Source: a virus (lineage: Duplodnaviria > Heunggongvirae > Uroviricota > Caudoviricetes). Taken from it: a DNA stretch of 19,466 bases. Positions 649-15,978 of this stretch are shown here, piece by piece. The DNA is taken from IMG/VR virus record IMGVR_UViG_2531839662_000028, positions 1-19,466 of that record; one strand, given 5' to 3'. The translations under genes and the position numbers were made by a program. Numbering within the stretch: the first letter of the stretch is position 1; each line of letters starts with the position of its first letter. The notes beneath the pieces were generated by a model. It had not been told where the DNA came from. It was given only the letters and a program-made list of their open reading frames with translations, and ran no database searches.

Positions 649-690
649 TGATAACCCTTTATCATACGCAATATGGTTGATGTGTGAAAG

Positions 691-927
691 ATGAGTAACG
701 ATTGGCATCGGGCTGACGTGATTGCGGCCCTCAAAAAAACAGGAATCCCTCTGGCAAAACTGTCCAGACGTTCAGGTTATTCAACCGGGACACTCGCAAA
801 TGCATTAGTCAGGCCATGGCCCAAAGGTGAACGTATCATTGCTGATGCCTTAAACATGAAACCTGAAGAAATTTGGCCTAGTAGATATCTAAGGGATCAC
901 AATGAGAGAGTGGATATCAGCAATTGA
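691..927 (+). CDS. ner: Ner-like DNA-binding early regulator, 78 aa
   Basis: Small ORF directly downstream of the operator region. Residues [13 protein letters not shown]...TLANAL...WPKGE.IIA.AL...PE.IWPSRY match the Ner family pattern; first gene of the rightward early operon as in Mu. Confidence 0.8.
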
Positions 928-2890
928 GTGTGCGGGTTTATCTGGTTTACCTGGTTCATTAATGGGGATTCACAAAAGGGCACAGAGAGAAGGATGGCTC
1001 AAGAGAAGAAGAGAAGGAATTAAAGGGGTTGCTTATGAATACCATATATCTTCTCTTCCTAACTCTGCCCGAGCTGAGTTTTTGATCCAACAAGGGGGAA
1101 TTGAAACAAGCCTGGGCCGTTTTGAAATCGCCCGCCCCACGCTGGAAGCCCATGATTATGATCGTGAGGCACTGTGGAGCAAATGGGATAACGCCAGCGA
1201 TTCCCAGCGCAGACTTGCTGAAAAATGGTTGCCTGCGGTTCAGGCTGCAGACGAAATGCTGAACCAGGGGATTTCAACGAAAACGGCATTTGCGACCGTT
1301 GCTGGACATTACCAGGTCAGCGCATCCACTTTGCGGGACAAATATTACCAGGTACAGAAGTTTGCGAAGTCTGACTGGGCGGCTGCGCTTGTTGATGGCC
1401 GTGGTGCATCCCGTCGCAACGTTCACAAAAGTGAATTTGACGAGGATGCCTGGCAGTTTCTGATTGCAGATTATCTGCGACCGGAAAAACCCGCCTTTCG
1501 CAAATGTTATGAGCGTCTGGAACTGGCAGCACGTGAGCATGACTGGAATATTCCCTCCCGTGCCACGGCCTTTCGCCGGATTCAGCAACTGGACGAGGCA
1601 ATGGTTGTTGCCTGCCGTGAAGGTGAACATGCACTGATGCATCTGATACCGGCACAGCAACGAACTGTGGAACACCTGGACGCCATGCAGTGGATCAACG
1701 GCGACGGTTATCTGCATAACGTCTTTGTACGCTGGTTTAACGGTGATGTGATCCGCCCGAAAACATGGTTCTGGCAGGATGTGAAAACCCGAAAAATTCT
1801 GGGCTGGCGCTGCGATGTGAGCGAGAACATTGATTCAATTCGCCTCTCGTTCATGGATGTTGTGACTCGCTACGGTATCCCGGAGGATTTTCACATCACC
1901 ATTGATAACACCCGTGGTGCAGCGAATAAATGGCTGACGGGAGGCGCGCCCAATCGTTACCGCTTTAAGGTAAAAGAGGACGATCCAAAGGGACTGTTTT
2001 TACTGATGGGCGCGAAAATGCACTGGACAAGCGTTGTTGCCGGTAAAGGCTGGGGCCAGGCAAAACCTGTTGAACGTGCTTTCGGTGTTGGTGGGCTTGA
2101 GGAATACGTTGATAAGCATCCGGCACTGGCTGGCGCATATACGGGGCCAAATCCGCAGGCAAAACCTGATAACTATGGCGACCGCGCTGTTGATGCAGAG
2201 CTGTTTCTGAAAACCCTTGCCGAAGGTGTGGCGATGTTCAATGCCAGAACAGGCCGTGAAACAGAAATGTGCGGGGGCAAACTCTCGTTTGATGATGTTT
2301 TCGAGCGTGAATACGCCAGAACGATTGTGCGTAAGCCAACCGAAGAACAAAAACGGATGCTGTTACTGCCTGCCGAGGCGGTGAACGTTTCACGCAAAGG
2401 CGAGTTTACGCTTAAAGTTGGCGGCTCCCTTAAAGGCGCGAAAAACGTTTATTACAACATGGCGTTAATGAATGCCGGCGTGAAAAAAGTTGTGGTCAGG
2501 TTTGATCCACAGCAGTTACACAGCACGGTTTATTGTTACACCCTGGACGGTCGGTTTATCTGTGAAGCGGAATGTCTGGCACCTGTTGCATTTAATGATG
2601 CTGCGGCAGGCCGCGAATATCGCCGCCGCCAGAAACAACTGAAATCTGCAACTAAAGCAGCCATTAAGGCGCAGAAACAAATGGACGCACTGGAAGTTGC
2701 TGAACTGCTGCCGCAGATAGCCGAACCAGCAGCGCCAGAATCAAGGGTTGTTGGTATTTTCCGGCCTTCCGGTAACACGGTGCAGGTGAAATACCAGGAA
2801 CCCGATGATGAATATGAAACTGATCGTGATGAATATCTGAATCATTCGCTGGATATTCTGGAACAGAACAGACGTAAAAAAGCCATTTAA
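902..2890 (+). CDS. A: Mu-type DDE transposase A, 662 aa
   Basis: Length and order (c-ner-A-B) as in Mu. N-terminal winged-helix domain resembles the repressor N-terminus. Catalytic triad candidates in Mu-equivalent positions: D268 (codon GAC 1703-1705, INGDGY), D335 (TIDNTRG), E391 (KPVERAF). Start overlaps ner end; AAGGGA lies 7 nt upstream of the ATG. Confidence 0.95.
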
Positions 2891-2928
2891 TTAACGTTTA
2901 AACAAAATTTAATTACGAGGTTATTCAG

Positions 2929-3867
2929 ATGAATATTTCCGATATTCGCGCAGGACTGCGCACGCTTGTAGAAAGTGAAAAAGCGACTTATGCACAAATT
3001 GCACGCGAGTCTGGCGTGGCCGCAGGAACGTTAAGCGCATTCGTGAATAACAAGTACAACGGCGACAATGAACGTGTTGCGCAGACGCTGGAACGCTGGC
3101 TGGAGAACTATCACCGTGCCGCAGAGCTGCCAGAACCACCACGTTTTGTGGAAACCAGAACAGCACGCCAAATCTGGACGAGTATGCGTTTTGCCAGCCT
3201 GACTGAAAGTATTTCTGTTATCTGCGGTAATCCAGGTGTGGGAAAAACTGAAGCGGCCCGCGAATTTCGTCGCACCAATAACAATGTCTGGATGATCACC
3301 ATTACCCCATCCTGTGCCAGTGTTCTGGAATGCCTGACTGAACTGGCTTATGAACTGGGAATGAATGACGCACCACGCCGTAAGGGGCCACTCTCCCGCG
3401 CTTTGAGACGCCGTCTTGAAGGTACGCAGGGGCTGGTCATTATCGACGAAGCTGATCATCTTGGCGCTGAGGTTCTGGAAGAACTCCGCCTGTTACAGGA
3501 GTCCGCCCGTATTGGCCTTGTTCTGATGGGGAATCACCGTGTTTATTCAAACATGACCGGTGGTAACAGAACGGTTGAATTTGCCCGCCTGTTTTCCCGT
3601 ATTGCCAAACGGACGGCAATCAATAAAACCAAAATTGATGATGTAAAAGCCATTGCGGATGCCTGGCAAATTACCGGCGAAAACGAGCGGGAATTATTAC
3701 AGCAGATTGCACAAAAGCCAGGTGCGCTTCGCATCCTGAACCACTCGCTGCGCCTTGCTGCCATGACCGCCCACGGTAAAGGTGAACGTGTTAATGAAGA
3801 TTATCTGCGTCAGGCTTTCCGTGAATTAGACCTCGACGTTGATATTTCAACCCTGCTGCGCACGTAA
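2929..3867 (+). CDS. B: Mu B-type transposition target-DNA activator (AAA+ ATPase), 312 aa
   Basis: 312 aa, immediately downstream of A. Walker A motif GNPGVGKT and a Walker B-like LVIIDEAD are read directly in the translation. Confidence 0.93.
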
Positions 3868-3880
3868 GGAGAGCGAAATC

Positions 3881-4108
3881 ATGATGTCACGGAATATCAA
3901 AATGGCAACGGAAGTAAAGAGCTGGTTACAGGAGCGCGGCAGCCACGTCAACGAATCCTGGCTGGGCGTGGCCCGCCCGGTGCTTGAAATTACCTGCCCG
4001 CCACCGGAGCTGGTCAGAAACGCTGTCAGGATTATGGAGCATAAATCAGGGGTTGCCCGTTCCGTATGGACGGCCCGCCTTAATGGTTGCCAGATTATCT
4101 GGCGTTAA
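3881..4108 (+). CDS. Small early protein in the kil position (Kil-like), 75 aa
   Basis: First ORF after B, as for Mu kil. AGGAG at 3867-3871 precedes the ATG at 3881; the track's longer ORF from 3839 overlaps the B coding end and is less likely. Function assigned by position only. Confidence 0.55.
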
Positions 4109-4140
4109 TAACGGCTTATTTATTTGTGAGGAATAACAAA

Positions 4141-4410
4141 ATGGCAAAAGTAATCTTTGAATTTAACCGCATGGAAGATGTTGAGTTTCAGAAAAAAGGA
4201 GGTTTCTTTGTAGGAATGAGTGTGCAACTGGAAGAACAGTCTCCTAAGGAGCAAACCGGACCGCATGACGTGATGGCAGGCATTATCAAGAGCATGGCTC
4301 CTGAAATTATTGAAAAAGCAACCCAGGAGTTGTTGAAGTCAGCCAGAGAACTTGGGCTGGAAGCCGAAGGCGAGTTATTCCGGTATAACCCGGATGCAGC
4401 CAAACATTAA
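4141..4410 (+). CDS. Hypothetical early protein, 89 aa, acidic
   Basis: ORF with GAGGA-type RBS upstream of the ATG at 4141; the track's longer ORF from 4087 lacks an RBS. Within the semi-essential early block. Confidence 0.55.
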   Translation: MAKVIFEFNRMEDVEFQKKGGFFVGMSVQLEEQSPKEQTGPHDVMAGIIKSMAPEIIEKATQELLKSARELGLEAEGELFRYNPDAAKH

Positions 4411-4427
4411 TTTCAGGGAAGGAGGCA

Positions 4428-4717
4428 TGATGATAATCCCTCGCAAAAGATGGTCACGCGAAGACCGGGAATTTATCGAAGCCAGTGTCGGGAAAATGAC
4501 CGTCGAGGAAATGGCGAAAAAACTGAACGTTGCCCCAACCGCCCTACAGGCACATGCCAGAAGGCACGGAATATCGTTGTGTGCATACCGGGTCAGTGAG
4601 CACGACAAATATTTGTGTCGTGAACTTTATAAAGAAGGGCTGGCTATTCATGTCATTGCCCAAAAGATGGAATTAAGCAATCGTGCTGTATCCAGCATTG
4701 TATACAGCGAATATTAA
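4428..4717 (+). CDS. Hypothetical small protein with helix-turn-helix-like segments, 96 aa
   Basis: GGAAGGAGG RBS at 4417-4425 immediately upstream of the ATG at 4428. Segments MTVEEMAKKLNVAPTALQAHARRHGIS and IHVIAQKMELSNRAV look HTH-like. Confidence 0.55.
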
Positions 4718-4737
4718 TTAACAGGAGCTTTATTTAT

Positions 4738-5262
4738 ATGGCTAAACCAGCAAAACGAATCAAGAGTGCCGCAGCAGCTTATGTTCCGCAATCCCGCGAT
4801 GCCGTGGTGTGTGATATTCGCCGGATTGGTGACCTGCAACGCGAAGCGGCACGACTTGAAACGGAAATGAATGACGCTATCGCTGAAATTACTGAGAAAT
4901 ACGCCTCACAGATTGCGCCCCTTAAAACCAGTATTGAAACCCTTTCAAAAGGCGTTCAGGGATGGTGTGAAGCGAACCGCGACGAACTGACGAACGGCGG
5001 CAAGGTGAAGACGGCGAACCTGGTAACCGGCGATGTGTCATGGCGTCAGCGCCCACCATCGGTAAGTATTCGCGGTGTGGATGCGGTGATGGAAACGCTG
5101 GAGCGTCTTGGCCTGCAACGCTTTATTCGCACGAAACAGGAAATCAACAAGGAAGCGATTTTACTGGAACCGAAAGCAGTCGCAGGTGTCGCCGGAATTA
5201 CAGTTAAATCAGGCATTGAAGATTTTTCTATTATTCCGTTTGAACAGGAAGCCGGTATTTAA
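4738..5262 (+). CDS. gam: Gam-like host-nuclease inhibitor / DNA-end binding protein, 174 aa
   Basis: 174 aa, the Mu Gam length. Translation MAKPAKRIKSAAAAYVPQ...WCEANRDELTNGGKVKTANLVTGDVSWR matches my recollection of Mu Gam. AGGAG at 4721-4725. Confidence 0.88.
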   Translation: MAKPAKRIKSAAAAYVPQSRDAVVCDIRRIGDLQREAARLETEMNDAIAEITEKYASQIAPLKTSIETLSKGVQGWCEANRDELTNGGKVKTANLVTGDVSWRQRPPSVSIRGVDAVMETLERLGLQRFIRTKQEINKEAILLEPKAVAGVAGITVKSGIEDFSIIPFEQEAGI

Positions 5263-5304
5263 TACCACCATTAATATTTAATTAGTTCACTTTCTTTTAA
5301 TTAT

Positions 5305-5334
5305 GGCGCGATGCGTCAGGGGATTGCTCGCGCC
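5305..5334 (+). other. GC-rich hairpin (GGCGCGA / TCGCGCC, 16-nt loop) in the gam-downstream spacer, no T-tract
   Basis: Inverted repeat read directly from sequence in the 98-bp gap. Could be an RNA processing/stability element or protein site; not a canonical intrinsic terminator. Confidence 0.3.
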
Positions 5335-5360
5335 TGAAACAGATTACTGAGGAATAAAAA

Positions 5361-5903
5361 ATGGTTGATGCAAAAGTTCTGAATGGTGTCAGCACATTAT
5401 TACGGGCTTACGGGCGTCTGACCTGCGGGGTTCTGGCTGAAAAAATGAATATGCTGCCCTCGTCAATGGTGTATTTCCTGCGTGATGCGGTTGATGCCGG
5501 AGTTCTCACTGAATGTAACGGATTTTATGACGTTCCGCGCCCTCGTCCAACGCCGCCAGTAAGACGAAACGCAACAACGGAACACCCCGCTGTTGATAAT
5601 GCTCAATGGTGCGCGTTCCGCCGCTCTTTGCCCTGGCTGGAAGGCAATGCCATTCCGGCATTGGCAAAAGAATTTGCGACAGGCGTACTGACCTGCGAGT
5701 CGGTTTACATCGTTGCTGAAGTGGATGACGAGATGTGCAAACAGGGGATGCCCCGTTTTGTGATGGCGTATATCGATATCCGGCTGGGGCGCTTTATTTG
5801 TGGTTCCAGTGGCTGGAATATCACCGACCACGTCATGCGCTATCTCATTCTTGATTATTCACCAGCTCCGGCAGCAACACAGGAAGTCAGTGAACATGAT
5901 TAA
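5361..5903 (+). CDS. Hypothetical early protein, 180 aa
   Basis: ORF with GAGGA RBS (5349-5353) 7 nt upstream of the ATG; enterobacterial-type codon usage; no recognisable catalytic motif. Confidence 0.6.
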   Translation: MVDAKVLNGVSTLLRAYGRLTCGVLAEKMNMLPSSMVYFLRDAVDAGVLTECNGFYDVPRPRPTPPVRRNATTEHPAVDNAQWCAFRRSLPWLEGNAIPALAKEFATGVLTCESVYIVAEVDDEMCKQGMPRFVMAYIDIRLGRFICGSSGWNITDHVMRYLILDYSPAPAATQEVSEHD

Positions 5904-6078
5904 GTCAATTGGCTTTGTCCTGCTGGTTGGCACCTGCGGGAGTGATGCCTGTGATGCTATCCCGGCAACAGAAAAAATCTGGCCCACAGAGCAGGCATGT
6001 ATGCAGGTGATGGAGCGCATACAAAAACGTTATCCCAGTGGAATCTTTTATTGCGAAGAGGTATTACGAAATGAGTAA
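5896..6078 (+). CDS. Small predicted secreted or lipoprotein-like protein with four cysteines, 60 aa
   Basis: Internal ATG at 5896 overlaps the stop of the preceding gene. N-terminus MIKSIGFVLLVGTCGSD resembles a signal peptide with a non-canonical lipobox-like LVGTC. Confidence 0.45.
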   Translation: MIKSIGFVLLVGTCGSDACDAIPATEKIWPTEQACMQVMERIQKRYPSGIFYCEEVLRNE

Positions 6079-6433
6079 GCATATTTATTACGACCCTAAA
6101 TATCGGGCTGAAATGCGGGCGCAACTGGTTGTCAGTGGATATACACCGGAGCAGGCCGATACAACTCTGACAGAACTGATGGGTGAGCTTCCATTTGATG
6201 AAGCTGAATATGAATACTGGCTGAAGCAGTTCAGGCTGGAAATTCTGGAAAACACCACACTGCCATCGCTGATAAGAATAATAAAAAGCGTTATCGACAA
6301 TGCCTGCTACAACGGTGATTGCTTGGCCGCAGCAATTGCGACCCATGCTCTGGTGAATCTGCTGGAGGTTACCGGCGCAGTTTTCCTGAATCCTGAAAAG
6401 GTATTAAGAGATGAAAATACAGATGATTACTGA
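6071..6433 (+). CDS. Hypothetical acidic small protein, 120 aa
   Basis: ATG at 6071 overlaps the preceding stop. AT-rich relative to flanking genes; D+E clearly exceeds K+R. No recognisable motif. Confidence 0.55.
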   Translation: MSKHIYYDPKYRAEMRAQLVVSGYTPEQADTTLTELMGELPFDEAEYEYWLKQFRLEILENTTLPSLIRIIKSVIDNACYNGDCLAAAIATHALVNLLEVTGAVFLNPEKVLRDENTDDY

Positions 6434-6746
6434 TGCTGATTTAATGGCTGCAACCTTAATTTCCAGTGGCATGTCAGAACAAAAGGTAAATGATTTCCTG
6501 GATAATGTCGTATACCAGCACTATGAGCAGGCCAGAGAAAATTTAATTTCAGAAAAGCGCACGATGATTGCTGAATCATTAAGCCCTGCATGGATTATCG
6601 AAGAGTTGCGGGGAATCATTGCCAGTCAGGATAAAGTGGCGGCAGTTGCCGCCCTTGATGTGCTACAGCGAATGAGTAAAGAGCTATTCAACACTGAATT
6701 AATTTTAAAATCCGGGGGACATAATGAATCGCACATCCCTGATTAA
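6411..6746 (+). CDS. Hypothetical acidic small protein, 111 aa
   Basis: ORF overlapping both neighbours by ~23 nt; AT-rich; about 20 acidic versus 10 basic residues. Confidence 0.55.
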   Translation: MKIQMITDADLMAATLISSGMSEQKVNDFLDNVVYQHYEQARENLISEKRTMIAESLSPAWIIEELRGIIASQDKVAAVAALDVLQRMSKELFNTELILKSGGHNESHIPD

Positions 6747-7275
6747 ATTAATTCATGTTGCACGTCGGGAGTTGCAACTTGACGATGACACTTACCGCGC
6801 TTTTCTGGTGCAGTGCACGGGCAAAACCAGTTGTCGCGAGCTGTCCGTTGCACAACTGGAACAAGTGCTCGATGCCATGAAAGAGCGCGGTTTTAAGAAA
6901 CAGAAAAAATATCCCCGCCGTCGTTTTAAGGGGCATGTCACACCACGCGAGAAGATTTACAAAATCTGGCAGCAGATGTTTCTTGACGGTTTCGTCTCCG
7001 ATATCAGCGACGCTGCGCTGGACAAATACGTTGAGCGCCTGACAGCCAGACGTAATGGCGGACAGGGTGTTTCCACGCTGGCATGGTGTCACGGGGAATC
7101 GTTGCAGGTTGTGCTTGAAACGCTCAAACAGTGGCATATGCGCTGCATCCGTGAAGCCTTTGCCCGACATGGTGTGCCTTTACCTGTGAGCGAAACCGGG
7201 CGGGAGCTGCGCGGCTATGATGCACTGACCAGTGCGTATGCCCGCGCACGAAACAGCGGGAGAATTGCTGTATGA
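6724..7275 (+). CDS. gemA: GemA-like gene expression modulator (DUF1018-type), 183 aa
   Basis: 183 aa, directly upstream of and overlapping mor (ATGA overlap) as in Mu. Translation MNRTSLIKLIHVARRELQLDDDTYRAF... fits the GemA family pattern as I recall it. Confidence 0.8.
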   Translation: MNRTSLIKLIHVARRELQLDDDTYRAFLVQCTGKTSCRELSVAQLEQVLDAMKERGFKKQKKYPRRRFKGHVTPREKIYKIWQQMFLDGFVSDISDAALDKYVERLTARRNGGQGVSTLAWCHGESLQVVLETLKQWHMRCIREAFARHGVPLPVSETGRELRGYDALTSAYARARNSGRIAV

Positions 7276-7682
7276 AACAGATGAAAGAGCAGGATTTATT
7301 CGAAGACTTCCGGGACGACAGCGTTCTGGAATATCTTCACGATTATCAGGAAAAATATGTTTACCCGGCGCTACTTTCAGAACTGAATGCTCTGTTGCGA
7401 CAGGAACTGATAAGGCTTGGGGTTAACCCGGTCCATTCCCTTGAGTTGGTAGTGGCGATTTGTAATCATATCGGTGGGATTCAGGTATATGTTCCTAAAG
7501 GGAAAATACTGGAAAATCTTATCAGAGACATGCGCATCTGGCGTGATTTTGATGGGAAAAACGTAGCGGAACTGGTGCAGCGTTACAAAGTGACATACAA
7601 AACGGTATATCAAGCTATCAAAAGAATGCGAAGGCTGGAGCGTGGAAAATATCAAATGCAACTGTTTAAGGATGAGTCATGA
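7272..7682 (+). CDS. mor: Mor/C-family transcription activator (Mor by synteny), 136 aa
   Basis: Acidic N-terminus and C-terminal HTH (...NVAELVQRYKVTYKTVYQAIKRMRR...) typical of Mor/C activators. Position immediately after gemA. Confidence 0.85.
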   Translation: MKQMKEQDLFEDFRDDSVLEYLHDYQEKYVYPALLSELNALLRQELIRLGVNPVHSLELVVAICNHIGGIQVYVPKGKILENLIRDMRIWRDFDGKNVAELVQRYKVTYKTVYQAIKRMRRLERGKYQMQLFKDES

Positions 7683-8158
7683 AATACTTTCCTCTTATAC
7701 TTTTACTGAGCGTATTTTGCGCTAATGCGGCAAAGTTGCCAGCTGAAGATGTCATCAAAAAACGTCTGACAGAAAAAGATCTCATTGCACTAAATAGCTG
7801 GAAGCCTCTTAAGGGAGGCGATTCTATTAAGAACGGTGGAACTGAAACTGCTCACAGCAAATTCGGGGTATTTACGATCAATAATAAAGTCGTCAGCTCA
7901 AGGACGACGGTAAAGGATTTTGAAAACAATCCTTCAGGTGTGTTGTCTTCCTTTGTAGCATGCTCGCGGGTTGCAGAGTCAGCAATTGGTGAACTAACAG
8001 AGAAGCAGCAGAAACGAATTATTGACATGGTAGTTTCAGCTACAAAAGTTGAAGGGTATGGGTTAACTGACGTGATACAGGGTTTTCTCATGCAAACCAA
8101 ATTTCTCAAGATGGGTAACGATATGGTAATAGATTGCTCCATCAAAGGAGATGAGTAG
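7679..8158 (+). CDS. Secreted protein of unknown function, 159 aa (moron-like cargo)
   Basis: N-terminal signal peptide MKYFPLILLLSVFCANAA. Visibly lower GC than flanking genes. ATGA overlap with the mor stop; followed by a strong intrinsic terminator. Confidence 0.7.
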   Translation: MKYFPLILLLSVFCANAAKLPAEDVIKKRLTEKDLIALNSWKPLKGGDSIKNGGTETAHSKFGVFTINNKVVSSRTTVKDFENNPSGVLSSFVACSRVAESAIGELTEKQQKRIIDMVVSATKVEGYGLTDVIQGFLMQTKFLKMGNDMVIDCSIKGDE

Positions 8159-8177
8159 TTATCTTCCCTTAATTCAA

Positions 8178-8203
8178 TGAAGCCGGTAAATCCGGCTTTT
8201 TTT
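8178..8203 (+). terminator. Intrinsic terminator-like hairpin + T7 tract (TGAAGCCGG-TAAAT-CCGGCTTTTTTT), copy 1 of a repeated element
   Basis: 7-bp GC-rich stem, 5-nt loop, seven Ts, 20 nt after the stop of the secreted-protein gene and 56 nt before the endolysin start. Identical 26-mer recurs at 15904-15929. Confidence 0.65.
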
Positions 8204-8258
8204 ATGCCTCCGGCACCATGAAGCAGACCACGTTTAACTCTGCTTCACAGGTGTTTTT

Positions 8259-8846
8259 ATGGAAAATCAAAAATTCTCCCCGGCCTTTGAACATGCGCTG
8301 AATTTTATTCTGCGTCCTGATATCGAAGGCGTTTATGTCAATGACCCCACTGACCGTGGCGGTGAAACCAAATACGGCATTTCTGACCGCCGCGACGGTG
8401 TGATTGACGGCAAAACCGATGTCAGCGGTGACGGCAAACCGGATACCCGCATCAAAGATTTAACCCGCGAACAGGTCGCGCAGATTTACTGGCGCGATTA
8501 CTGGCTGCCTGCCGGATGTGACCAGTGGCCTGATGGCGTGGCGATGTTTGTTTTCGATGCAGCGGTTCAGCATGGCGTTAAAAAAGCCATCAAAATTTTG
8601 CAGGAAGCCACTGATATCAATGCCGATGGCATCATCGGCCCGCGCACCCGCAGGGCCGTGAACCTGGCTGACCAGAACTGGTTGCTGACCCGCTGTATTG
8701 TCCGTCGTTCCCGCTTTTATGCCGAAATCATCAAATCAAAACCCGCCCAGGGCAAATACCTGAACGGCTGGTTTAACCGCATGGAAAAACTGACCGACGC
8801 CTGTCTGGAAATCATCGACAACGCGCCGTCCACCACGCGGGGGTGA
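8259..8846 (+). CDS. Endolysin, GH108-type muramidase with C-terminal peptidoglycan-binding domain, 195 aa
   Basis: N-terminal motif EGVYVNDPTDRGGETKYGI matches the GH108 signature; C-terminal DGIIGPRT resembles the peptidoglycan-binding module. No signal peptide or TM segment. Confidence 0.85.
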   Translation: MENQKFSPAFEHALNFILRPDIEGVYVNDPTDRGGETKYGISDRRDGVIDGKTDVSGDGKPDTRIKDLTREQVAQIYWRDYWLPAGCDQWPDGVAMFVFDAAVQHGVKKAIKILQEATDINADGIIGPRTRRAVNLADQNWLLTRCIVRRSRFYAEIIKSKPAQGKYLNGWFNRMEKLTDACLEIIDNAPSTTRG

Positions 8847-8847
8847 T

Positions 8848-9099
8848 ATGGGCAAAGGCTGGGATGCCTCACTGAAAGCCGGGCGGCGTGACCGCCTGCG
8901 TCAGGAGGTTCTGCACCGCATGGCCGGAGGTCCGTCCCCGAAACCGCTGGACTATACCGGCCATGACGGCACACACGCCAGCTACTACATGCGTGGCTGG
9001 AACTCCGTGGATACACGGGACATTTTCTGGCAGTGCCAGAAGTACAGGGAAAAATTCAATGTGGAAAAAGGTAATGAACAAAATTTTAAAACTGTGTGA
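8848..9099 (+). CDS. Hypothetical basic protein in lysis cassette, 83 aa
   Basis: ATG 2 nt after the endolysin stop; good enterobacterial codon usage (CTG, GCC, AAA) through most of the ORF; no TM segment. Confidence 0.45.
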   Translation: MGKGWDASLKAGRRDRLRQEVLHRMAGGPSPKPLDYTGHDGTHASYYMRGWNSVDTRDIFWQCQKYREKFNVEKGNEQNFKTV

Positions 9100-9484
9100 C
9101 TGGCTGCTTTGTTCCCGACTGATGAGAACCCCATGGCCGCTGGCCGGACTGACACTCTGCATGTTCATCATCAGCATGTTATGTGGCTGGCGATCGTTCG
9201 TGTTGATGTTGTTGTCCTTTGCCGGGGTGGTGTTGTTTTCATACAGCGCAAGCCTCGGGAATGTGCCATTTCGCCTGCTGCCTGAGGTCCGTTACCGGGC
9301 TTTTGGTCGCCACATCATCGTGTGGTCATGGGTGGTCTGGGCGCTGGGATATTTCTGCTGCGTCTTCAGCACGCTGATGATGGTGTCACCGGTGCATCCG
9401 GTGTTCTGGCTGTGTGGTGGCTGTTGCGGCGGTCTGCTCTGTCTTCAGCGTTATCTGTATGGAGGTTTCCCGTGGATCCGTTAA
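9059..9484 (+). CDS. Multi-pass membrane protein (about four TM segments), Cys/Trp-rich; candidate holin, 142 aa
   Basis: Only + frame covering 9100-9470 with host-like codon usage. Hydrophobic segments PWPLAGLTLCMFIISMLCGW, FVLMLLSFAGVVLFSY, IIVWSWVVWALGYFCCVF, VFWLCGGCCGGLLCL. Start at internal ATG 9059 (AGGGA upstream) chosen because the upstream part of the track ORF overlaps the better-supported frame-1 gene. Confidence 0.55.
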   Translation: MWKKVMNKILKLCDWLLCSRLMRTPWPLAGLTLCMFIISMLCGWRSFVLMLLSFAGVVLFSYSASLGNVPFRLLPEVRYRAFGRHIIVWSWVVWALGYFCCVFSTLMMVSPVHPVFWLCGGCCGGLLCLQRYLYGGFPWIR

Positions 9485-10080
9485 CCCTTTCAGGCATCGC
9501 CTCTGTTCTGCTGAAAGCCGGGCCGGGGCTGATTCGTTCCGTCGGGCGCTGGTTTGGTGGCAGTACATCTGCCGCCGCTGACTCGGTGGCCGGTATGGTG
9601 GAAAGCGTCCGGGAAAGCCTTCCCGTTGCTGAACAGCAACGCATTCTGGAACAAAAACTGGTGATGCTGTCACCGGAGCAACTGGTGCAACTGGAAACCC
9701 TGAAAATTCAGCTGCAACAGCTGGAGGTGGAACGGCAGAAGCTGGTGCTGGCTGACCAGCAGGCCGCACACCACGAACAGCAGGAAACCATCCGCAATGG
9801 TGACAACGCCACGGACAGCTATGTGCGCCAGACACGCCCGCTGCTGGCCCGCCTTTCCTGTTACAGCAGTCTGGCCTATGTGCTGTTGCTCTCCTGCGGC
9901 CAGATTGCCGGAGCCATTGCCGGTGCCAGAGGTATCACGCTGCATATGCCATCACCGGACTGGGATATCACGCTGATGTTGCTTACCCCGGCGCTGGGCT
10001 ATCTCGGTGTAAGAACCCTTGACGGCTTTGCCCGTTACAGCAAATCAAGCCGTCACAAAATGTCTGCGGGGCCGAAATGA
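9472..10080 (+). CDS. Membrane-associated coiled-coil protein, lysis-associated candidate (spanin- or holin-like), 202 aa
   Basis: GTG start at 9472 preceded by GGAGG (9462-9466). Hydrophobic N-terminus, Q/E/L-rich coiled-coil middle, C-terminal hydrophobic segments. Confidence 0.5.
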   Translation: MDPLTLSGIASVLLKAGPGLIRSVGRWFGGSTSAAADSVAGMVESVRESLPVAEQQRILEQKLVMLSPEQLVQLETLKIQLQQLEVERQKLVLADQQAAHHEQQETIRNGDNATDSYVRQTRPLLARLSCYSSLAYVLLLSCGQIAGAIAGARGITLHMPSPDWDITLMLLTPALGYLGVRTLDGFARYSKSSRHKMSAGPK

Positions 10081-10304
10081 CCGACGAAATCGATCGCATC
10101 AGTGAAGTGGTTCTGAACGAGCGTCAGAGCGTCGTTAAAGCCTGGCAGACACGGACAAAAGAAACGCCCCACAGCCGGGGCTTCTGCAATGACTGCGGGA
10201 ACGTTATTCCGGCACAGCGCCTTGCGGCGCTGCCGGATGTGGTGACCTGTATTGACTGTCAGCAGATGCGGGAACGCAGGAGGAAAACGTGTCCTGGGAA
10301 ATGA
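10077..10304 (+). CDS. TraR/DksA-family C4 zinc-finger protein, 75 aa
   Basis: CxxC-x16-CxxC arrangement (CNDCGN...CIDCQ) in a ~75-aa protein, characteristic of TraR/DksA-like zinc fingers. ATGA overlap with the preceding gene. Confidence 0.75.
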   Translation: MTDEIDRISEVVLNERQSVVKAWQTRTKETPHSRGFCNDCGNVIPAQRLAALPDVVTCIDCQQMRERRRKTCPGK

Positions 10305-10594
10305 TCAGAGCCAACTGGCCCATTCTGTGGGCATTGCTGATGACAGGAATAAACCTGCTTCAGTTGATTCTGGCAAAGACCTACGTCAAGCGCGAAGAGT
10401 TTGATTTGCTGCGTTCCCGCGTGTCGGTGATGGAAAGCCAGGTACATCAGCTACCTGATCGTGATGAGTTCCACCGCCTGCAACTGGATATCAGCAACCT
10501 GCGGGGAGAAATCAAAGAGCTGGGGCCATCCATCCGCCAGGTATCCCGCATCAGCGATTTGTTATTAGAGAACGAGTTAAAGGAAAAAAATTAA
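10289..10594 (+). CDS. Small membrane-anchored coiled-coil protein (Mu gp25-like by position), 101 aa
   Basis: GTG start at 10289 preceded by AGGAGG (10278-10283). One N-terminal TM segment (WPILWALLMTGINLLQLIL) followed by a coiled coil. Confidence 0.6.
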   Translation: MSWEMIRANWPILWALLMTGINLLQLILAKTYVKREEFDLLRSRVSVMESQVHQLPDRDEFHRLQLDISNLRGEIKELGPSIRQVSRISDLLLENELKEKN

Positions 10595-10887
10595 TGGCGA
10601 TGAAAGAGATCCTCACTGAAGACCGTCGTCTGGTGTTGCTGCGTTCCCTGCTGGATTGTGGCGACAGTGCGAATGAATCCGTGTTGCAGACCTGCCTTCA
10701 GGCCTACGGTCATAAGGTATCCCGTGATGTGGTGCGCACCCAGCTTGCATGGCTGCGCGAGCAGGGGCTGGTTCGTCTGTCTGATGTGGGCGGCTGTTAC
10801 GTGGCTGAAATCACCGGCAGCGGCGAGGATGTGGCAAACGGCCTGTCCAGCGTTCCGGGCGTTAAAAAACCCCGTGCGAGGGACTGA
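10594..10887 (+). CDS. Hypothetical protein, 97 aa
   Basis: ORF with ATG overlapping the preceding TAA; host-like codon usage; part of the co-directional late block before terminase. Confidence 0.6.
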   Translation: MAMKEILTEDRRLVLLRSLLDCGDSANESVLQTCLQAYGHKVSRDVVRTQLAWLREQGLVRLSDVGGCYVAEITGSGEDVANGLSSVPGVKKPRARD

Positions 10888-10889
10888 GC

Positions 10890-11189
10890 ATGGCCCGAAA
10901 ACTGAAGCCGTTAAGTCGCGGAGAACGGGCCGTCGTGCGGCAACTGGCGTACTGCCTTGTGCTGGCAGATATTGAGCAAAACGCCATTGTCCGTGCATAC
11001 GAACAACAGACCGGAAAGCCCTGGAACCCGGATGCACCGGATACCCCCATGAAACGTGCCCTGCGTTCATCACCGGCATGTGCGCGGCTGTGGAAGCTGC
11101 TGGGTAAGGATATCCGCTCCGTTCGCGAAGAAATATACGCCGGTCTGAAAACACCGGGAACTGAAGACGGGGGCCGTCGTGAACCGTAA
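10890..11189 (+). CDS. Hypothetical protein, 99 aa
   Basis: ORF with GAGGGA RBS 8 nt upstream of the ATG; host-like codon usage. Confidence 0.6.
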   Translation: MARKLKPLSRGERAVVRQLAYCLVLADIEQNAIVRAYEQQTGKPWNPDAPDTPMKRALRSSPACARLWKLLGKDIRSVREEIYAGLKTPGTEDGGRREP

Positions 11190-11326
11190 AAAGAATCCGA
11201 TAAGTAAAGCGTCCCGTGATGAACTCCGCCGTCTGGCGCACAACCTGACATGGCGGGAAATCCAGAGCGGCGCACTGAAATCTGCATACGAAAGTTTACA
11301 GCGTAGTGAGCAACAGGAGGGCACAC

Positions 11327-11908
11327 ATGGAAAATGAACAACGCCCCACCCGTGGCCGTCTTTCCAAAGTGGATTTACTCCCGGACAGCATCCGGGAGCA
11401 GTTGCATCAGATGCTGCGGGAAAAGCGGCACACGCAGGAAGAAATCCGCGAAGCCATCAACGCCCTGATTGACGAACACAACCTGCCGGAAGAGATGCAG
11501 TTAAGCCGGACGGGCTTAAACCGCTATGCCATCCGCATGGAAAAAGTCGGGGCAAAAATCCGTGCCTCCCGCGAAATGGCCGAAGTCTGGGCGGCAAAGC
11601 TGGGTTCCGCGCCGACGTCAGACGTCGGCAAACTGCTGATGGAGTTTGTAAAAACGCTGGCTTTTGAAACGTCCATGTCGATGGCAGAAGACGACAAGCC
11701 CGTTGCACCGAAGGCGCTGGGGCAACTGGCGCTGGTTGCCCAGCGTCTGGAAGCGGCAGCCATGACCAGCCATAAACGCGAGAAAGCGATCCGTGATGCG
11801 TTTGCGCAGGAGATGGCAGAGAAAACCGAAGAACTGGTCAGAACGGGCGGTCTGTCAGGCGGTGCGGCTGACACCATCAAACGAGACATTCTGGGGATTA
11901 GCGTATGA
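11327..11908 (+). CDS. Terminase small subunit-like protein (Mu gp27 position), 193 aa
   Basis: Immediately upstream of and overlapping the large terminase. AGGAGG at 11315-11320 supports the ATG at 11327 rather than the track's upstream start at 11306 (GTG). Confidence 0.65.
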   Translation: MENEQRPTRGRLSKVDLLPDSIREQLHQMLREKRHTQEEIREAINALIDEHNLPEEMQLSRTGLNRYAIRMEKVGAKIRASREMAEVWAAKLGSAPTSDVGKLLMEFVKTLAFETSMSMAEDDKPVAPKALGQLALVAQRLEAAAMTSHKREKAIRDAFAQEMAEKTEELVRTGGLSGGAADTIKRDILGISV

Positions 11909-13440
11909 CACAAATGGATACGTTCAGTGAATATGATGTTCTGCTGCCGTATCAGAAACGCTGGGTGGCGGATGATGCCGACCTGAAAATTGCCGAGAAA
12001 TCCCGCCGTACCGGTTTAACCTGGGCGGAAGCGGCGGATGCGGCACTGACGGCATCACTGAAGAAGGAAGACGGCGGGCGCGATCACTTTTATATCGGTT
12101 CGAATAAGGAGATGGCCCGCGAATTTATCGACGCCGTGGCGATGTGGGCGAAAGCGTTTAATGCGGCAGCGGAAGAAATCTGCGAGGAAGTGATCACCGA
12201 CGAAGACAAGGACATTCTGACGTTCGTCGTGTACTTCGCCAGCGGTTTTAAGGTCAAGGCATTGTCCAGCAACCCGAGCAACATTCGCGGGATGCAGGGG
12301 AATGTCACCATCGACGAGGCCGCGTTCCATGAAAAACTGGACGAGCTGCTGAAGGCTGTGCTGCCGCTGAAAACATGGGGCGGCAAAATTCGCCTTATTT
12401 CCACCCATGACGGCGTGGACAACCTGTTTAACCAGCTGATTCAGGAAAGCCGCGCGGGCAAAAAAGATTACAGCATTCACACCATCACGCTGGATGACGC
12501 CTGCAATGACGGGCTGTACCGGCGTATCTGTCAGGTGCGCGGCATGGTGTGGTCACCGGAAGCCGAAGCGGAATGGAAAGAAGGTCTGCTGCGAAATACC
12601 GCCACCCGCGAAGACGCACTGGAAGAATATTACTGCGTCCCGAAAAACGGCGGCGGCACGTATATCCCCCGCTCACTGCGTGAACGTGCGGCCCGTGGCA
12701 CCGGGAAAGTGTTGCGCTTTACCGGCACACCGGAATTTAACGCACTGACGGAAAGCCAGCGCCGGGCAGATATCCGGGAATGGCTGGAAACAGTGGTGCG
12801 CCCTGAACTGGAAAAACTCCCGAAGAACCTGCGCCACTGTCTGGGGGAAGACTTTGCGCGTTCGGGTGACCTGACCGTACTGGCCCCGGTGACGGTGAAC
12901 GATGACACCACCCGCGAGGTGCCGTTTCTGGTTGAGCTTGGCAATGTGCCGTTTAAACAGCAGGAGCAGGTGCTGTTCTGGCTTTGCGATCGTCTGCCCC
13001 GCCGTGACGGCATCAAAATGGATGCGCGGGGGAATGGTCAGTATCTGGCAGAACAGGCGGCGGAGCGGTACGGCGACGAAGTGGAACAGGTGATGCTGTC
13101 CGTGGCGTTCTACCGCGAAAACATGCCCCGTTTCCGTGCGGCGTTTGAAGATGATGAGCTGATCCTTCCGAAGCATGAAGACGTGATCAATGACCTCGGG
13201 GCCATTCAGTTACTGCGTGGCGTTCCCGGCATTGATGATTCACGAACCCGTGGCAGCGACGGTCACAAACGTCACGGCGACGCCGCTGTGGCCATTTTCC
13301 TGGGCTTCCTGGCCAGCAAGGATGACTGCCACCGTTACGAACTGCACCGCCTGAACCGCCCGGCGAAACCGGAAGAACGCAACGCGCGCCGCCAGATGAA
13401 GCTGACGCGCGGCCTGAAAAATGAGGGAGGTTTACTGTGA
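11905..13440 (+). CDS. Terminase large subunit (Mu gp28-like), 511 aa
   Basis: 511-aa protein between small terminase and portal; overall resemblance to Mu-like large terminases; ATGA overlap with the upstream gene. Confidence 0.88.
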   Translation: MTQMDTFSEYDVLLPYQKRWVADDADLKIAEKSRRTGLTWAEAADAALTASLKKEDGGRDHFYIGSNKEMAREFIDAVAMWAKAFNAAAEEICEEVITDEDKDILTFVVYFASGFKVKALSSNPSNIRGMQGNVTIDEAAFHEKLDELLKAVLPLKTWGGKIRLISTHDGVDNLFNQLIQESRAGKKDYSIHTITLDDACNDGLYRRICQVRGMVWSPEAEAEWKEGLLRNTATREDALEEYYCVPKNGGGTYIPRSLRERAARGTGKVLRFTGTPEFNALTESQRRADIREWLETVVRPELEKLPKNLRHCLGEDFARSGDLTVLAPVTVNDDTTREVPFLVELGNVPFKQQEQVLFWLCDRLPRRDGIKMDARGNGQYLAEQAAERYGDEVEQVMLSVAFYRENMPRFRAAFEDDELILPKHEDVINDLGAIQLLRGVPGIDDSRTRGSDGHKRHGDAAVAIFLGFLASKDDCHRYELHRLNRPAKPEERNARRQMKLTRGLKNEGGLL

Positions 13441-15008
13441 ACCTGAAACAACTGGCCGGGGCCGTTCGCCGTCTGCTGAACCCGGCAACCGGTGAGGAAG
13501 ACACACTGAAAAAAGAGGCGCTCAACGAAGCACAGGCCCGTCCGCGTCATGCCGGTGTGCGTTCGGCCTCGCCGGGTATCAGCGTCGCCTCCGGGCTGAA
13601 CCCCGGCAGGCTGGCAGGCATTCTGCGCAATGCCGCCGACGGCATCACACGTGATTTTTTTATCCTTGCTGAAGAGATGGAAGAACGCGATTTGCATTAC
13701 GCCTCGGTGCTGCGCACCCGCAAGCTGACGGTGGCGGGTATCGAACCGGTGGTGGTGGCCGCCAGTGATGACGATGCTGACGTGCAACTGGCGGACGCCA
13801 TCCGTGCGCTGATGGAAGCCCCGCAAATCCCTGAGCTGATGTTTGATTTGCTCGACGGGCTGGGAAAAGGCGTGGCGGTCTGTGAAATCCTGTGGGACAC
13901 CCGCAACAACCACTGGATGCCCCGTGATTATGAATGGGTTGATCCCCGTTTTCTGAAAGCCGAAAAACCCACGCTGCACCAGTTCCGCCTGCTGACTGAC
14001 GATGAACCGGTGGATGGCGTACCGCTGACACCGGGAAAATTCATTGTTCACCAGCCGCGCCTGAAATCCGGTCTGCCGTTGCGTAACGGTCTGGCCCGTC
14101 TGGTGGCGGTGATGTACATGCTGAAATCCTTTACCGTGCGCGACTGGTGGGCATTCGCGGAAAAATTTGGCATTCCGGTCACGGTGGGGAAATACGGTCC
14201 CAACGCCACGGAGGAGCAAATCCGCGTACTGATTGATGCGATTGCCTCCATTGCCTCGGATGCCGGGTGTGCCATTCCGCAGTCCATGCAACTGGAAATG
14301 AAGGAAACCGCCAGCAGGAATAACGGCGGCGCACTGTTCCGTGAAATGGCGGAATGGTGTGATGCACAAATCAGTAAGGCTGTGCTGGGGCAGACCATGA
14401 CCACGGATAACGGCAGTTCGCGTTCACAGGCGGACGTGCACAATCAGGTGCGCATGGACATTGTGCGCTGGGACGCGCGGCAGCTGGCTAACACGCTGAA
14501 TGAATATCTGGTACGCCCCTACATTGAGGCCAACTACGGGCCACAGGCGCACTACCCCCGTGTTGTTCTGCGTATCAGTGAAGCGGAAGATTTGAAGGCG
14601 CTGACAGACGCTCTGGTGCCACTGATTGACCGGGGGATGCGGGTTCAGGAATCGGAGCTGCGGGACCGGTTCGGCCTGGCTGAACCGGACGACGGGGCTG
14701 ATGTTCTGCATCCGGTGTCTGCCGGAATGTCAGGTGATATGGCGATGAACCGCGAGCGCGTCGCCCTGAACCGTGAACACCCCGATGAACTGGCACAGAT
14801 GGTGGATGATGCCCTGCGTGACTGGCAGAAAACCGGCGAGGCGTTCACGAACCCGGTGCTGACACTGGCGCAGGAATGCGACAGTTTTGATGACTTTCTG
14901 AAACGTCTGCCTGAGCTTCAGGAAACGCTGAACGCGGACGACTTTGCCCTGCAACTGGCGGAGGTGTGCTTTAAGGCGCGTGTGCTGGGGGACACTGCTC
15001 ATGCGTGA
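13437..15008 (+). CDS. H: Portal protein (Mu gp29/H-like, DUF935-type), 523 aa
   Basis: 523-aa protein following terminase. GTG start at 13437 preceded by GAGGGAGG (13423-13430), overlapping the terminase stop. Confidence 0.85.
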   Translation: MNLKQLAGAVRRLLNPATGEEDTLKKEALNEAQARPRHAGVRSASPGISVASGLNPGRLAGILRNAADGITRDFFILAEEMEERDLHYASVLRTRKLTVAGIEPVVVAASDDDADVQLADAIRALMEAPQIPELMFDLLDGLGKGVAVCEILWDTRNNHWMPRDYEWVDPRFLKAEKPTLHQFRLLTDDEPVDGVPLTPGKFIVHQPRLKSGLPLRNGLARLVAVMYMLKSFTVRDWWAFAEKFGIPVTVGKYGPNATEEQIRVLIDAIASIASDAGCAIPQSMQLEMKETASRNNGGALFREMAEWCDAQISKAVLGQTMTTDNGSSRSQADVHNQVRMDIVRWDARQLANTLNEYLVRPYIEANYGPQAHYPRVVLRISEAEDLKALTDALVPLIDRGMRVQESELRDRFGLAEPDDGADVLHPVSAGMSGDMAMNRERVALNREHPDELAQMVDDALRDWQKTGEAFTNPVLTLAQECDSFDDFLKRLPELQETLNADDFALQLAEVCFKARVLGDTAHA

Positions 15009-15765
15009 AACTCTCATCCCGAAAGAGGCGCTGGCGTGGCTGAAGGCGAAGAAGCTGCGCCCCGGTTTTGATTACCGGGATGTATGGCGGGAAGAGCACC
15101 GGAACAGCTTCACCGTGGCAAAAATGCTGCAACTGGATTTGTTGTCGGATGTGAAAGCCCTTGTGGAAGACGCCCTGCAAAGCGGGCAGACGTTCAGCGA
15201 GTTCCGGGAGGCGCTGCAACCGCTGCTGATAAAACGCGGATGGTGGGGCGTTCAGGAGATGGATGATCCGCTGACGGGCGAAAGGCGCACCGTGCAACTG
15301 GGCAGCGACCGCCGCCTCCGCACGATTTTTGATACCAACATGCGCACCGCCCGCGCGGCGGGCCAGTGGGAACGCATTCAGCGGACAAAGCGGGCCATGC
15401 CGTATCTGATTTACGAGCTGGGACCATCCCGCGAGCACCGGGCGGAGCATGTGAAATGGGCGCGTCTGTGTCTGCCGGTAGATCATCCGTTCTGGCAGAC
15501 GCATTTCGCCCCTAACGGCTGGGGCTGCAAATGCACCATCCGTCAGGTCAGCCGTGGTGAATATGCGCAACTGGCGGCACAGGGCACCATTCACACCGAA
15601 GCGCCGGAAATCAGAACTGTCCGCTGGGTGAACAAACGCACGGGCGAAGAGGAAGAGGTGCCGGAAGGGATTGATCCGGGCTGGAACTACAATCCCGGTA
15701 TAAACCGTGAGCAGGAGCTGGTGCGCCAGCTGGCGACAAAACAGGCCCGTTTTGACAGTGAGTAA
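15001..15765 (+). CDS. F: Head morphogenesis protein, Mu F-like (shorter than Mu F), 254 aa
   Basis: Position directly after portal; start taken at ATG 15001 overlapping the portal stop. Family assignment rests mainly on synteny and is tentative. Confidence 0.65.
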   Translation: MRETLIPKEALAWLKAKKLRPGFDYRDVWREEHRNSFTVAKMLQLDLLSDVKALVEDALQSGQTFSEFREALQPLLIKRGWWGVQEMDDPLTGERRTVQLGSDRRLRTIFDTNMRTARAAGQWERIQRTKRAMPYLIYELGPSREHRAEHVKWARLCLPVDHPFWQTHFAPNGWGCKCTIRQVSRGEYAQLAAQGTIHTEAPEIRTVRWVNKRTGEEEEVPEGIDPGWNYNPGINREQELVRQLATKQARFDSE

Positions 15766-15788
15766 CCCTCCCGCCGTAAATCCCCCTG

Positions 15789-15812
15789 AAACGCATCAGA
15801 AACGCGTTTTTT
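15789..15812 (+). terminator. Intrinsic terminator candidate after F (AAACGC-atcagaaac-GCGTTT followed by T-run)
   Basis: 6-bp stem, 9-nt loop, then TTTTTT, about 25 nt after the F stop; overlaps a larger imperfect palindrome TCAGAA...TTCTGA. Confidence 0.5.
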
Positions 15813-15840
15813 ATTCTGATGGCGTGAATGTGCATTCTGA

Positions 15841-15882
15841 CGTTTTTGAAGATGCTGTGGCGTTTTTGAAGGGGTTTTGAAG
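15841..15882 (+). repeat. Three direct repeats of GTTTTTGAAG-like motif (CGTTTTTGAAG x2 spaced 20 bp, then GTTTTGAAG)
   Basis: Read directly from sequence, in the F-I intergenic region between two terminator-like hairpins; the 20-bp phasing of the first two copies suggests a protein-binding array. Confidence 0.4.
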
Positions 15883-15903
15883 GGGGTATTTCCCCGTTTT
15901 CAG

Positions 15904-15929
15904 TGAAGCCGGTAAATCCGGCTTTTTTT
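15904..15929 (+). terminator. Copy 2 of the repeated hairpin + T7 element, 50 nt upstream of the I start
   Basis: Identical 26-mer to 8178-8203; similarity continues on both sides (TTCA.TGAAGCC... and ...TTTTTTT.TGCCT.CCG.CA...TGA). Confidence 0.65.
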
Positions 15930-15978
15930 CTGCCTTCCGCATACTGACCGTCGGTAACCCCAAACGACGGAGACTGAC

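Follow-up and report, generated by a model that had tools for sequence, protein, structure and literature searches.

The window analysed here, a stretch of 19,466 nucleotides (positions 1 to 19,466 of IMG/VR virus record IMGVR_UViG_2531839662_000028), is a Mu-like transposable prophage of Escherichia coli. On its plus strand, at 9059..9484, lies a gene for a small membrane protein of 141 amino acids that is rich in cysteine and tryptophan, and which is the subject of this study. We conclude that this protein is very probably a divergent homologue of gp19 of phage Mu. It represents a Cys-rich allele, hereafter type A, found in E. coli prophages, and is predicted to be an inner-membrane protein with four transmembrane domains (TMDs) and both termini in the cytoplasm (N-in/C-in). 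The positional orthology with Mu gp19 is secure; the sequence homology is remote and well above that of controls. The function that we propose, that of an accessory component of holin-dependent lysis, is put forward more tentatively.

In the Mu genome record gp19 (120 amino acids) is entered as an 'N-in C-in, 4 transmembrane domain protein'. Its sequence (E19; AAF01096; phrog_4975) contains seven Cys and seven Trp and shows, as in the window protein, a turn of the form ...(I)S(L/M)(F/L)CGWR... after the first transmembrane (TM) helix. A profile of 61 distinct proteins of the window family was compared by means of hhalign with the small gp19 group, consisting of Mu, two close relatives and the 38%-identical protein of locus L102. 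This gave a score of 32.8 (P = 4.5e-5) over 96 collinear columns running from TM1 to TM4. Column shuffling performed 200 times resulted in a mean score of 11.4 (standard deviation 2.2) with a maximum of 19.4, and 200 shuffles within 20-column blocks reached a maximum of 19.9; the observed score lies about 10 standard deviations above these 400 shuffles. The reversed alignment scored 16.8 and LysA of phage P2, an unrelated protein with four TMDs, 13.6. The remote-homology search that had been proposed as a check of the original prediction thus provided a profile-profile link to Mu gp19 that exceeds every shuffle. With single sequences, BLASTP of the window protein against Mu gp19 gave E = 0.012 over 22 residues only. 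Family searches in Pfam, NCBIfam and PADLOC returned nothing for the protein, and PHROGs returned only families that have no function assigned.

The genetic context points in the same direction. Like the window gene, Mu gene 19 lies directly downstream of and overlaps gene 18, has a homologous ATG and Shine-Dalgarno (SD) sequence, and is part of an operon behind a Pm element. The two proteins also share the N-in/C-in four-TMD topology, a high Trp content, a fairly high Cys content and the CGWR turn after TM1. The gp18 homologue of the window (8848..9099, plus strand; 83 amino acids, soluble, 69% identity to Mu gp18; PF26867 Phage_Mu_gp18 on orthologues; phrog_2121) overlaps the start of the gp19-like gene by 41 nt, which suggests translational coupling. 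In the curated Mu record gene 19 follows gene 18 with an 8-nt overlap. The gp18 stop codon of the window has shifted downstream upon loss of the usual stop, which results in an 11-residue C-terminal extension and the 41-nt overlap.

DNA of the gp18/gp19 junction was aligned for the window, an E. coli allele of the second type (type B, described below), Klebsiella phage Kp4866-3, locus L022 and Mu. All five sequences share the ATG at 9059 and, ahead of it, ACA(G/A)GGA(A/G)AAA (ACAGGGAAAAA in the window); this ATG and the upstream ACAGGGA motif coincide with the annotated start and ribosome-binding site of Mu gene 19. RefSeq/PGAP models the gene from the second ATG (9074-9484, 136 amino acids; 9875-10285 in L001). 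Since the ATG at 9059 and its SD align with Mu gene 19 and with all other lineages, the 9059 start appears ancestral and the PGAP model, with its start at 9074, probably lacks the first five codons. The start at 9059, from which the original prediction had also read the frame, is therefore better supported than that of RefSeq/PGAP. All type-A alleles have two in-frame ATGs (M1 and M6, MWKKVM), four codons apart with two Lys between them; the second ATG is absent from the type-B, Klebsiella-type and Mu proteins.

The open frame consists of 141 codons, MWKKVMNKILKLCDWLLCSRLMRTPWPLAGLTLCMFIISMLCGWRSFVLMLLSFAGVVLFSYSASLGNVPFRLLPEVRYRAFGRHIIVWSWVVWALGYFCCVFSTLMMVSPVHPVFWLCGGCCGGLLCLQRYLYGGFPWIR, and its translation runs MWKKVMNKILKLCDW...WLCGGCCGGLLCLQRYLYGGFPWIR. 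It contains ten Cys (7.1%) and nine Trp (6.4%), versus 1.4% Cys and 1.7% Trp in the 20 other likely genes of the window when pooled (binomial P = 2.7e-5 and 7e-4, respectively). The motif CGGCCGG corresponds to residues 119-125 (nt 9413-9433). The original prediction of a Cys- and Trp-rich four-helix protein with this motif is thus confirmed as to coordinates, composition and the four hydrophobic segments. This composition is weak proof of a gene, because several wrong-frame stop-free stretches in the window, which is rich in G and C at third codon positions (GC3-rich), are as Cys-rich as the frame under study. Hence it could be argued that the frame is an artefact, a chance open reading frame (ORF) in GC3-rich DNA, the more so as long alternative ORFs overlap the region. 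The frame was therefore tested by selection. For ten type-A alleles, the ratio of non-synonymous to synonymous polymorphism (pN/pS) came to 0.23 in this frame, the two remaining frames giving 0.85 and 1.83; the corresponding values for nine type-B alleles were 0.29 in this frame and 1.06 and 1.25 in the remaining ones. The frame is under purifying selection and the gene is real. Furthermore, conservation across genera, at 25-40% identity, extends to the ORF and its length as well as to the start codon and the four hydrophobic helices; syntenic homologues occur in several genera, and the protein matches phrog_12596 at 5.7e-48. Frame-specific selection, taken together with the conservation of homologues across genera, refutes the artefact reading, whose probability we consider negligible, and upholds the earlier view that this is a genuine gene.

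Hydropathy analysis shows four hydrophobic segments, and an AlphaFold2 model based on 34 sequences of the family (pLDDT 82, pTM 0.73) consists of an N-terminal amphipathic helix and four long helices. TM1 (residues 26-42, 9134..9184, as judged by hydropathy, AlphaFold2 and BLASTP/hhalign) ends in the CGWR turn that Mu gp19 has as ISLFCGWR. TM2 (residues 47-65, 9197..9253, from hydropathy, AlphaFold2 and alignment) is followed by a conserved basic loop, LGNVPFRLLPEVRYRAFGR (9254-9316). TM3 (residues 87-107, 9317..9379, from alignments) bears the near-invariant motif SW..W..G, and TM4 (residues 115-129, 9401..9445) is weakly hydrophobic, rich in small residues and holds CGGCCGG; all are on the plus strand. 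The net charges across the family are +2.2 for the N-terminus, +3.2 for the TM2-TM3 loop and +2.1 for the C-terminus. By the positive-inside rule these three parts are predicted to be cytoplasmic and the two short turns periplasmic. The C-terminal tail is short (12 residues, net +2). It ends in invariant W-I-R codons (TGG ATC CGT) that overlap the start of the next gene, which encodes a protein of 202 amino acids (GTG GAT CCG, M-D-P), and both the GGAGG SD and the GTG start of that gene lie inside the last codons of the gp19-like gene. The conservation of WIR is therefore likely due in part to dual coding; Mu gp19, without the 202-aa neighbour, has no WIR. Fold searches with the AlphaFold2 model against BFVD and PDB found generic helical bundles only, all at E > 0.8, and PDB sequence searches with the profiles of the gp19-like protein and gp18 were empty.

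The two residues that make the protein conspicuous behave differently in the family, as seen in the 61 distinct sequences. Trp is uniformly high, with a median of 6.7% and a range of 4.4-9.6%, and near-invariant Trp residues are found at the start of TM1, in SW..W..G of TM3 and at the C-terminus. For Cys the median is 2.2%, and values run from 0.7 to 7.4%. None of the ten Cys columns of the window protein is conserved, each Cys being found in only 8-20 of the 61 sequences, and Klebsiella-type orthologues have a single Cys. Even within type A the motif varies: the window shares CGGCCGG with L004 and P0001, most copies have CGGSCGG, two loci have CGGGCGA and P0002 has CGSGCGG. C122 is replaced by S or G, and G125 by A, among near-identical alleles; alleles that replace CC (SC, GC, G-C) are 87-98% identical. 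As judged from these alignments, Trp at helix ends is a conserved compositional signature of the family, and Cys-richness and CGGCCGG are limited to one E. coli allele. Of the compositional feature that had drawn attention to the gene, the Trp part therefore stands as a family trait and the Cys part does not. The CGGCCGG segment looks like a small-residue (GxxxG-type, GG..GG) helix-packing face of TM4, whose positions would accept Cys, Ser, Gly or Ala alike.

The suggested metal- or redox-sensitive role, with the CGGCCGG cysteines taken as the sensor, finds some appeal in the ten Cys with CC pairs in both TM3 and TM4, and in the fact that Mu gp19 is fairly Cys-rich as well (7 of 120 residues). 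It is nonetheless very improbable, given a family in which no Cys ligand or CxxC-type motif is conserved and some members have one Cys, and a motif that differs among near-identical alleles. In addition, the predicted N-in/C-in topology would place most Cys in the bilayer or facing the reducing cytoplasm. The cysteine cluster is thereby removed as a tempting false lead: it is allele-specific noise rather than a conserved functional site.

Syntenic homologues were found in prophages of Klebsiella, Citrobacter, Raoultella, Pluralibacter, Trabulsiella and Serratia. In essentially all of the 89 loci collected for a gp18 relative (nine from species-representative genomes and 80 from IMG/VR), the next gene encodes a four-helix protein of 125-141 amino acids and starts within the end of gp18, and a four-TM gene of this size follows gp18 in 67 of the 67 distinct loci with the 202-aa gene. 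An exhaustive phmmer search of 1.84 billion representatives gave 12 matches only, and a word-based homology search retrieved near-identical proteins only. Megablast against phage genomes found no match, tblastn found one unannotated Klebsiella phage, and a scan of genome contigs with a profile of the gp19-like protein found nothing. The family is narrow and restricted to prophages of Enterobacterales.

The gene is by far the fastest evolving of its cassette, with a mean pairwise distance of 0.56 versus 0.17-0.35 for Mor, GH108, gp18, the 202-aa protein, TraR and DUF2730. Two alleles exist in E. coli prophages, A with 9-10 Cys and B with four, that are only 38-40% identical. They sit in cassettes with flanking genes that are 85-100% identical (L013-L021 and L043-L051, at 4001-4408 or 3212-3622), a pattern of sharp mosaic replacement of a single gene. 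Because of the two divergent alleles, matches of the window in E. coli genomes are 81% covered, in two pieces. The window itself is 99.3% identical to a prophage in the chromosome of E. coli UMNF18, and related copies occur in 51 of 5,426 complete E. coli genomes.

RefSeq annotation and domain scans identify Mu-like genes upstream, namely those for the repressor, transposase A, a MuB-like ATPase, Gam, gp16/GemA and Mor (7272-7682). Mor and the genes described below are on the plus strand. Mor is followed by a variable gene of low GC content (0.41; 7679-8158) for a secreted protein of 159 amino acids with a signal peptide (phrog_38744). Only few related prophages have this gene between Mor and the Pm-like element, and it resembles a moron-type insertion; in Klebsiella phage Kp4866-3 the site is taken by the gene of another small membrane protein. 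Downstream lies an element (about 8165-8240) with a hairpin and T-run, GAAGCCGGTAAATCCGGCTTTTTTTA (8179..8199), recognised by alignment with Mu, a terminator scan and the Mu record. It is nearly identical to the Mu sequence just downstream of mor, which is annotated as the early terminator and the Mor-activated middle promoter Pm, and is retained ahead of GH108 in loci of E. coli, Klebsiella and the Mu type. Because of this homology to the Mu Pm region, the gp19-like gene is predicted to be transcribed in a Mor-dependent operon that begins at the Pm-like element.

The first gene behind this element (8259..8846) encodes a muramidase with GH108 and PG_binding_3 domains (Pfam 9.6e-24 and 8.6e-18; phrog_315 endolysin), which also matches NF040573 ('holin-associated N-acetylmuramidase', NCBIfam) weakly. 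It has no signal peptide or signal-anchor-release (SAR) segment; such an endolysin is soluble and therefore needs a holin. After gp18 and the gp19-like gene comes the gene for the 202-aa membrane protein (9472..10080), which has two C-terminal TM helices and a basic tail. Its top family is always PF11351 (GTA_holin_3TM), with 19.6 bits for the window protein and 16.2-17.9 bits for four orthologues, all below the Pfam gathering threshold of 24.8 bits. Judged by these scores it is a plausible distant relative rather than a certified member of PF11351, and it is the most probable, putative holin of the cassette. Then follow genes for a TraR/DksA zinc-finger protein (10077..10304; PF01258 at 7e-11; RefSeq) and for a DUF2730 protein (10289..10594; PF10805 at 1.7e-30) of the Mu gp25 releasin family (PMC9239132), and after these homologues of Mu gp26, gp27, terminase and portal.

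Some further observations concern these neighbours. The releasin-family gene is present although the endolysin is soluble and has no SAR domain, and this combination is among the cases flagged as unexplained in PMC9239132. A lipobox scan of the whole window found no ORF for an o-spanin-like lipoprotein, and no Rz-like gene was found in or near the lysis cassette; Mu, unlike the window, has gp23/gp23.1. Comparison of gp18 homologues (PF26867) shows H23, D40, G41, T42, H43 and C63 to be invariant and residue 39 to be His or Cys, in a pattern DYTG[HC]DGTH ... C, possibly a small metal-binding site. The phrog_2121 profile (284 positions) matches three adjacent genes, those of gp18, the gp19-like protein and the 202-aa protein, and is probably a composite, derived from gene calls (P0046 and P0010 among them) in which genes were fused or the frame had shifted.

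As a model for function we propose that the gene, as the Mu gp19 counterpart of a Mu-like prophage with its start nested in the 3' end of the gp18 homologue, would be expressed in a Mor-dependent operon with the order Pm-like element, GH108 muramidase, gp18, gp19-like protein, PF11351-like holin candidate, TraR and DUF2730. Its product would be a non-essential accessory membrane component of holin-dependent lysis, perhaps one that modulates timing like an antiholin, or one that partners the 202-aa holin candidate and/or gp18, and would not itself form the hole. For Mu, gp18, gp19 and gp20 are described as products of middle, not late, genes and as non-essential (PMC9239132), and the same paper states, citing Mathee & Howe 1993, that gp19 is dispensable for lysis. 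Neither Mu gp19 nor gp20 was lethal when expressed singly, jointly or with the full set of Mu candidates, even after addition of dinitrophenol (DNP) (Chamblee et al. 2022, PMC9239132). We regard the combination of gp19 counterpart and non-essential lysis modulator as the best explanation, with a little less than an even chance of being right as a whole; the role of modulator, which is argued by analogy, is a tentative assignment.

A number of results weigh against this explanation. The probability that hhalign gives for the link between the window family and the gp19 group is 69% only, and hmmscan of the protein gave no direct match to phrog_4975, the family of Mu gp19, at E <= 0.1; neither does hmmscan link PHROGs 12596 and 4975. 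The modulator role has position, topology and analogy as its only basis, and the negative holin tests concern Mu gp19, ~23% identical to the window protein, of a phage that has neither GH108 nor the 202-aa protein. The 202-aa proteins beside the A and B alleles are 93-100% identical, which, at 38-40% identity between the alleles, disfavours a highly specific helix-helix partnership. A mirror-tree analysis singled out no partner, with r = 0.72-0.85 for all lysis neighbours. Lastly, some of the Mu-type prophages that lack gp19 do have GH108, so GH108 can persist without gp19. Regarding these prophages, gp19 is kept in four and absent in eight of 12 Mu-type loci (with gp20, C and SAR endolysin). 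Alignment of gp19-less loci (L092, L106, L112, around 3200-3230) showed one precise junction at which the gp20 start replaces the gp19 start, gene 19 being absent as an exact cassette. Repeated loss of gp19 in Mu-type phages is thus not upheld by the loci examined; its absence may be a single event, and these loci were therefore given little weight.

Two other functions have to be considered; the original prediction had named a holin and a membrane-embedded exclusion protein. The protein could be the holin, or an obligate co-holin, for GH108, of a new four-TMD type and possibly a dual-start (M1/M6) pair in type A. A small membrane protein two genes after a holin-dependent endolysin, with the extreme divergence that is typical of holins and a weakly hydrophobic, Gly-rich TM4, would fit such a role, as does the fact that GH108, gp18 and gp19 travel together even in Mu-type phages without the 202-aa gene. 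The adjoining 202-aa protein is the better candidate, however, and Mu gp19 did not behave as a holin in experiments (PMC9239132). Besides, the tail is not long and charged, and the protein matches no holin model in Pfam, NCBIfam or PHROGs, the sole holin trace being a match of the type-B allele to phrog_26796 at E = 0.017. The two in-frame ATGs with two Lys between them, present in every type-A allele, recall a dual start; this idea is unsupported, as the second ATG is specific for type A and the predicted cytoplasmic N-terminus makes a lambda-like dual-start mechanism inapplicable. The holin suggestion is weakened by these results and we consider it unlikely.

Alternatively, the protein could be a membrane factor unrelated to lysis that merely resides in the Mor-dependent operon, acting in superinfection exclusion, in protection of the lysogen or infected cell, or as an anchor for gp18. 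That gp18, gp19 and gp20 of Mu are middle, non-essential genes (PMC9239132) agrees with this, as do the tight coupling to gp18 in every lineage and the replacement of alleles in near-identical cassettes, which fits diversifying, exclusion-type functions. Yet pN/pS within alleles indicates purifying rather than diversifying selection, the gene is kept between endolysin and holin candidate in 67/67 loci, and the Mor-dependent promoter would, as inferred from Mu, be lytic and not lysogenic. PADLOC models of anti-phage defence and exclusion gave no match at E <= 1, which leaves the suggested exclusion protein without support; a role outside lysis seems improbable. The accessory lysis component accordingly remains our preferred, if tentative, reading.

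GH108, gp18 and gp19 form a recurring trio in transposable phages, and in most relatives a soluble GH108 endolysin and the PF11351-like holin candidate are constantly accompanied by gp18 and the gp19-like gene. L113 and L092, two IMG/VR contigs from close relatives of Mu, unexpectedly carry a full-length gene for a GH108 muramidase of 186 amino acids between mor/Pm and gene 18 (2448-3008), besides the late SAR endolysin. In L113 gp19 is 100% and Lys, the SAR endolysin, 98% identical to Mu. Sequenced Mu (AF083977, 9170-9248; L024) has no GH108. This suggests, by sequence comparison, that Mu lost an ancestral GH108-gp18-gp19 module. It would go further, and we think it rather doubtful, to regard the three as an ancestral lysis module of transposable phages in which the gp19-like protein is the (co-)holin and gp18 its cytoplasmic regulator. 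If that were true, the 'holin-less' lysis of Mu would be derived, with GH108 lost and gp18 and gp19 as decaying relics in the middle operon, which would explain both the dispensability of gp19 and its precise absence from many Mu-type prophages.

Several known lysis systems resemble the cassette in part. P2 LysA is an antiholin encoded by a separate gene after the endolysin gene, with 141 amino acids and four TMDs, and has been described as 'nonessential; affects timing of lysis' (PMC3091744). It is like the window protein in size, number of TM helices and position just after the endolysin in the lysis cassette. It differs in composition (3 Cys, 3 Trp), and its partner holin is Y (class I), not a PF11351-like protein. 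Homology was rejected, as the hhalign score of 13.6 falls within the range of shuffled LysA (mean 10.8, maximum 17.5); the resemblance is a functional analogy of architecture only. The gene transfer agent RcGTA has a lysis locus of two ORFs, endolysin rcc00555 and holin rcc00556 (PMC5026251). As in the window, a GH108-type muramidase is combined with a PF11351(-like) membrane protein, a likeness that concerns the neighbours and not the gp19-like protein itself. PMC5026251 mentions no gp18- or gp19-like genes for RcGTA, and the 202-aa protein of the window is below the Pfam threshold.

The canonical holins lambda S105 and phage 21 S68 are likewise small inner-membrane proteins of phages encoded near the endolysin gene, and the two nearby start codons of the type-A allele are a further likeness. 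The Gly-rich helix face of TM4 is reminiscent of the glycine zippers of pinholins. In contrast to S105 and S68, the window protein has four TMDs, a cytoplasmic N-terminus and no long charged C-terminal tail, and shows no homology to them. Its homologue Mu gp19, unlike canonical holins, is not triggered by DNP (PMC9239132).

Of known proteins, Mu gp19, which has already been described, comes closest, and the window protein joins it as a new, divergent member whose cassette is arranged differently. The two are about 23% identical over aligned columns, differ in length (141 versus 120 amino acids) and belong to separate PHROGs, and Mu gp19 lacks the loop LGNxPYRLL and the C-terminal WIR of the window family. 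The window gene follows the GH108 endolysin and precedes the 202-aa holin candidate, whereas Mu gene 19 precedes gp20 and the late activator C and is without GH108. This comparison makes it possible to link to Mu gp19 about 60 distinct membrane proteins from enterobacterial Mu-like prophages (phrog_12596) that are annotated as 'hypothetical', and the start codons of their RefSeq models are probably to be moved 15 nt upstream. The more interesting by-product is the GH108-gp18-gp19 module and its bearing on the history of holin-less lysis in Mu, and the comparison places the role of Mu genes 18 and 19, a long-standing loose end, in a framework that can be tested.

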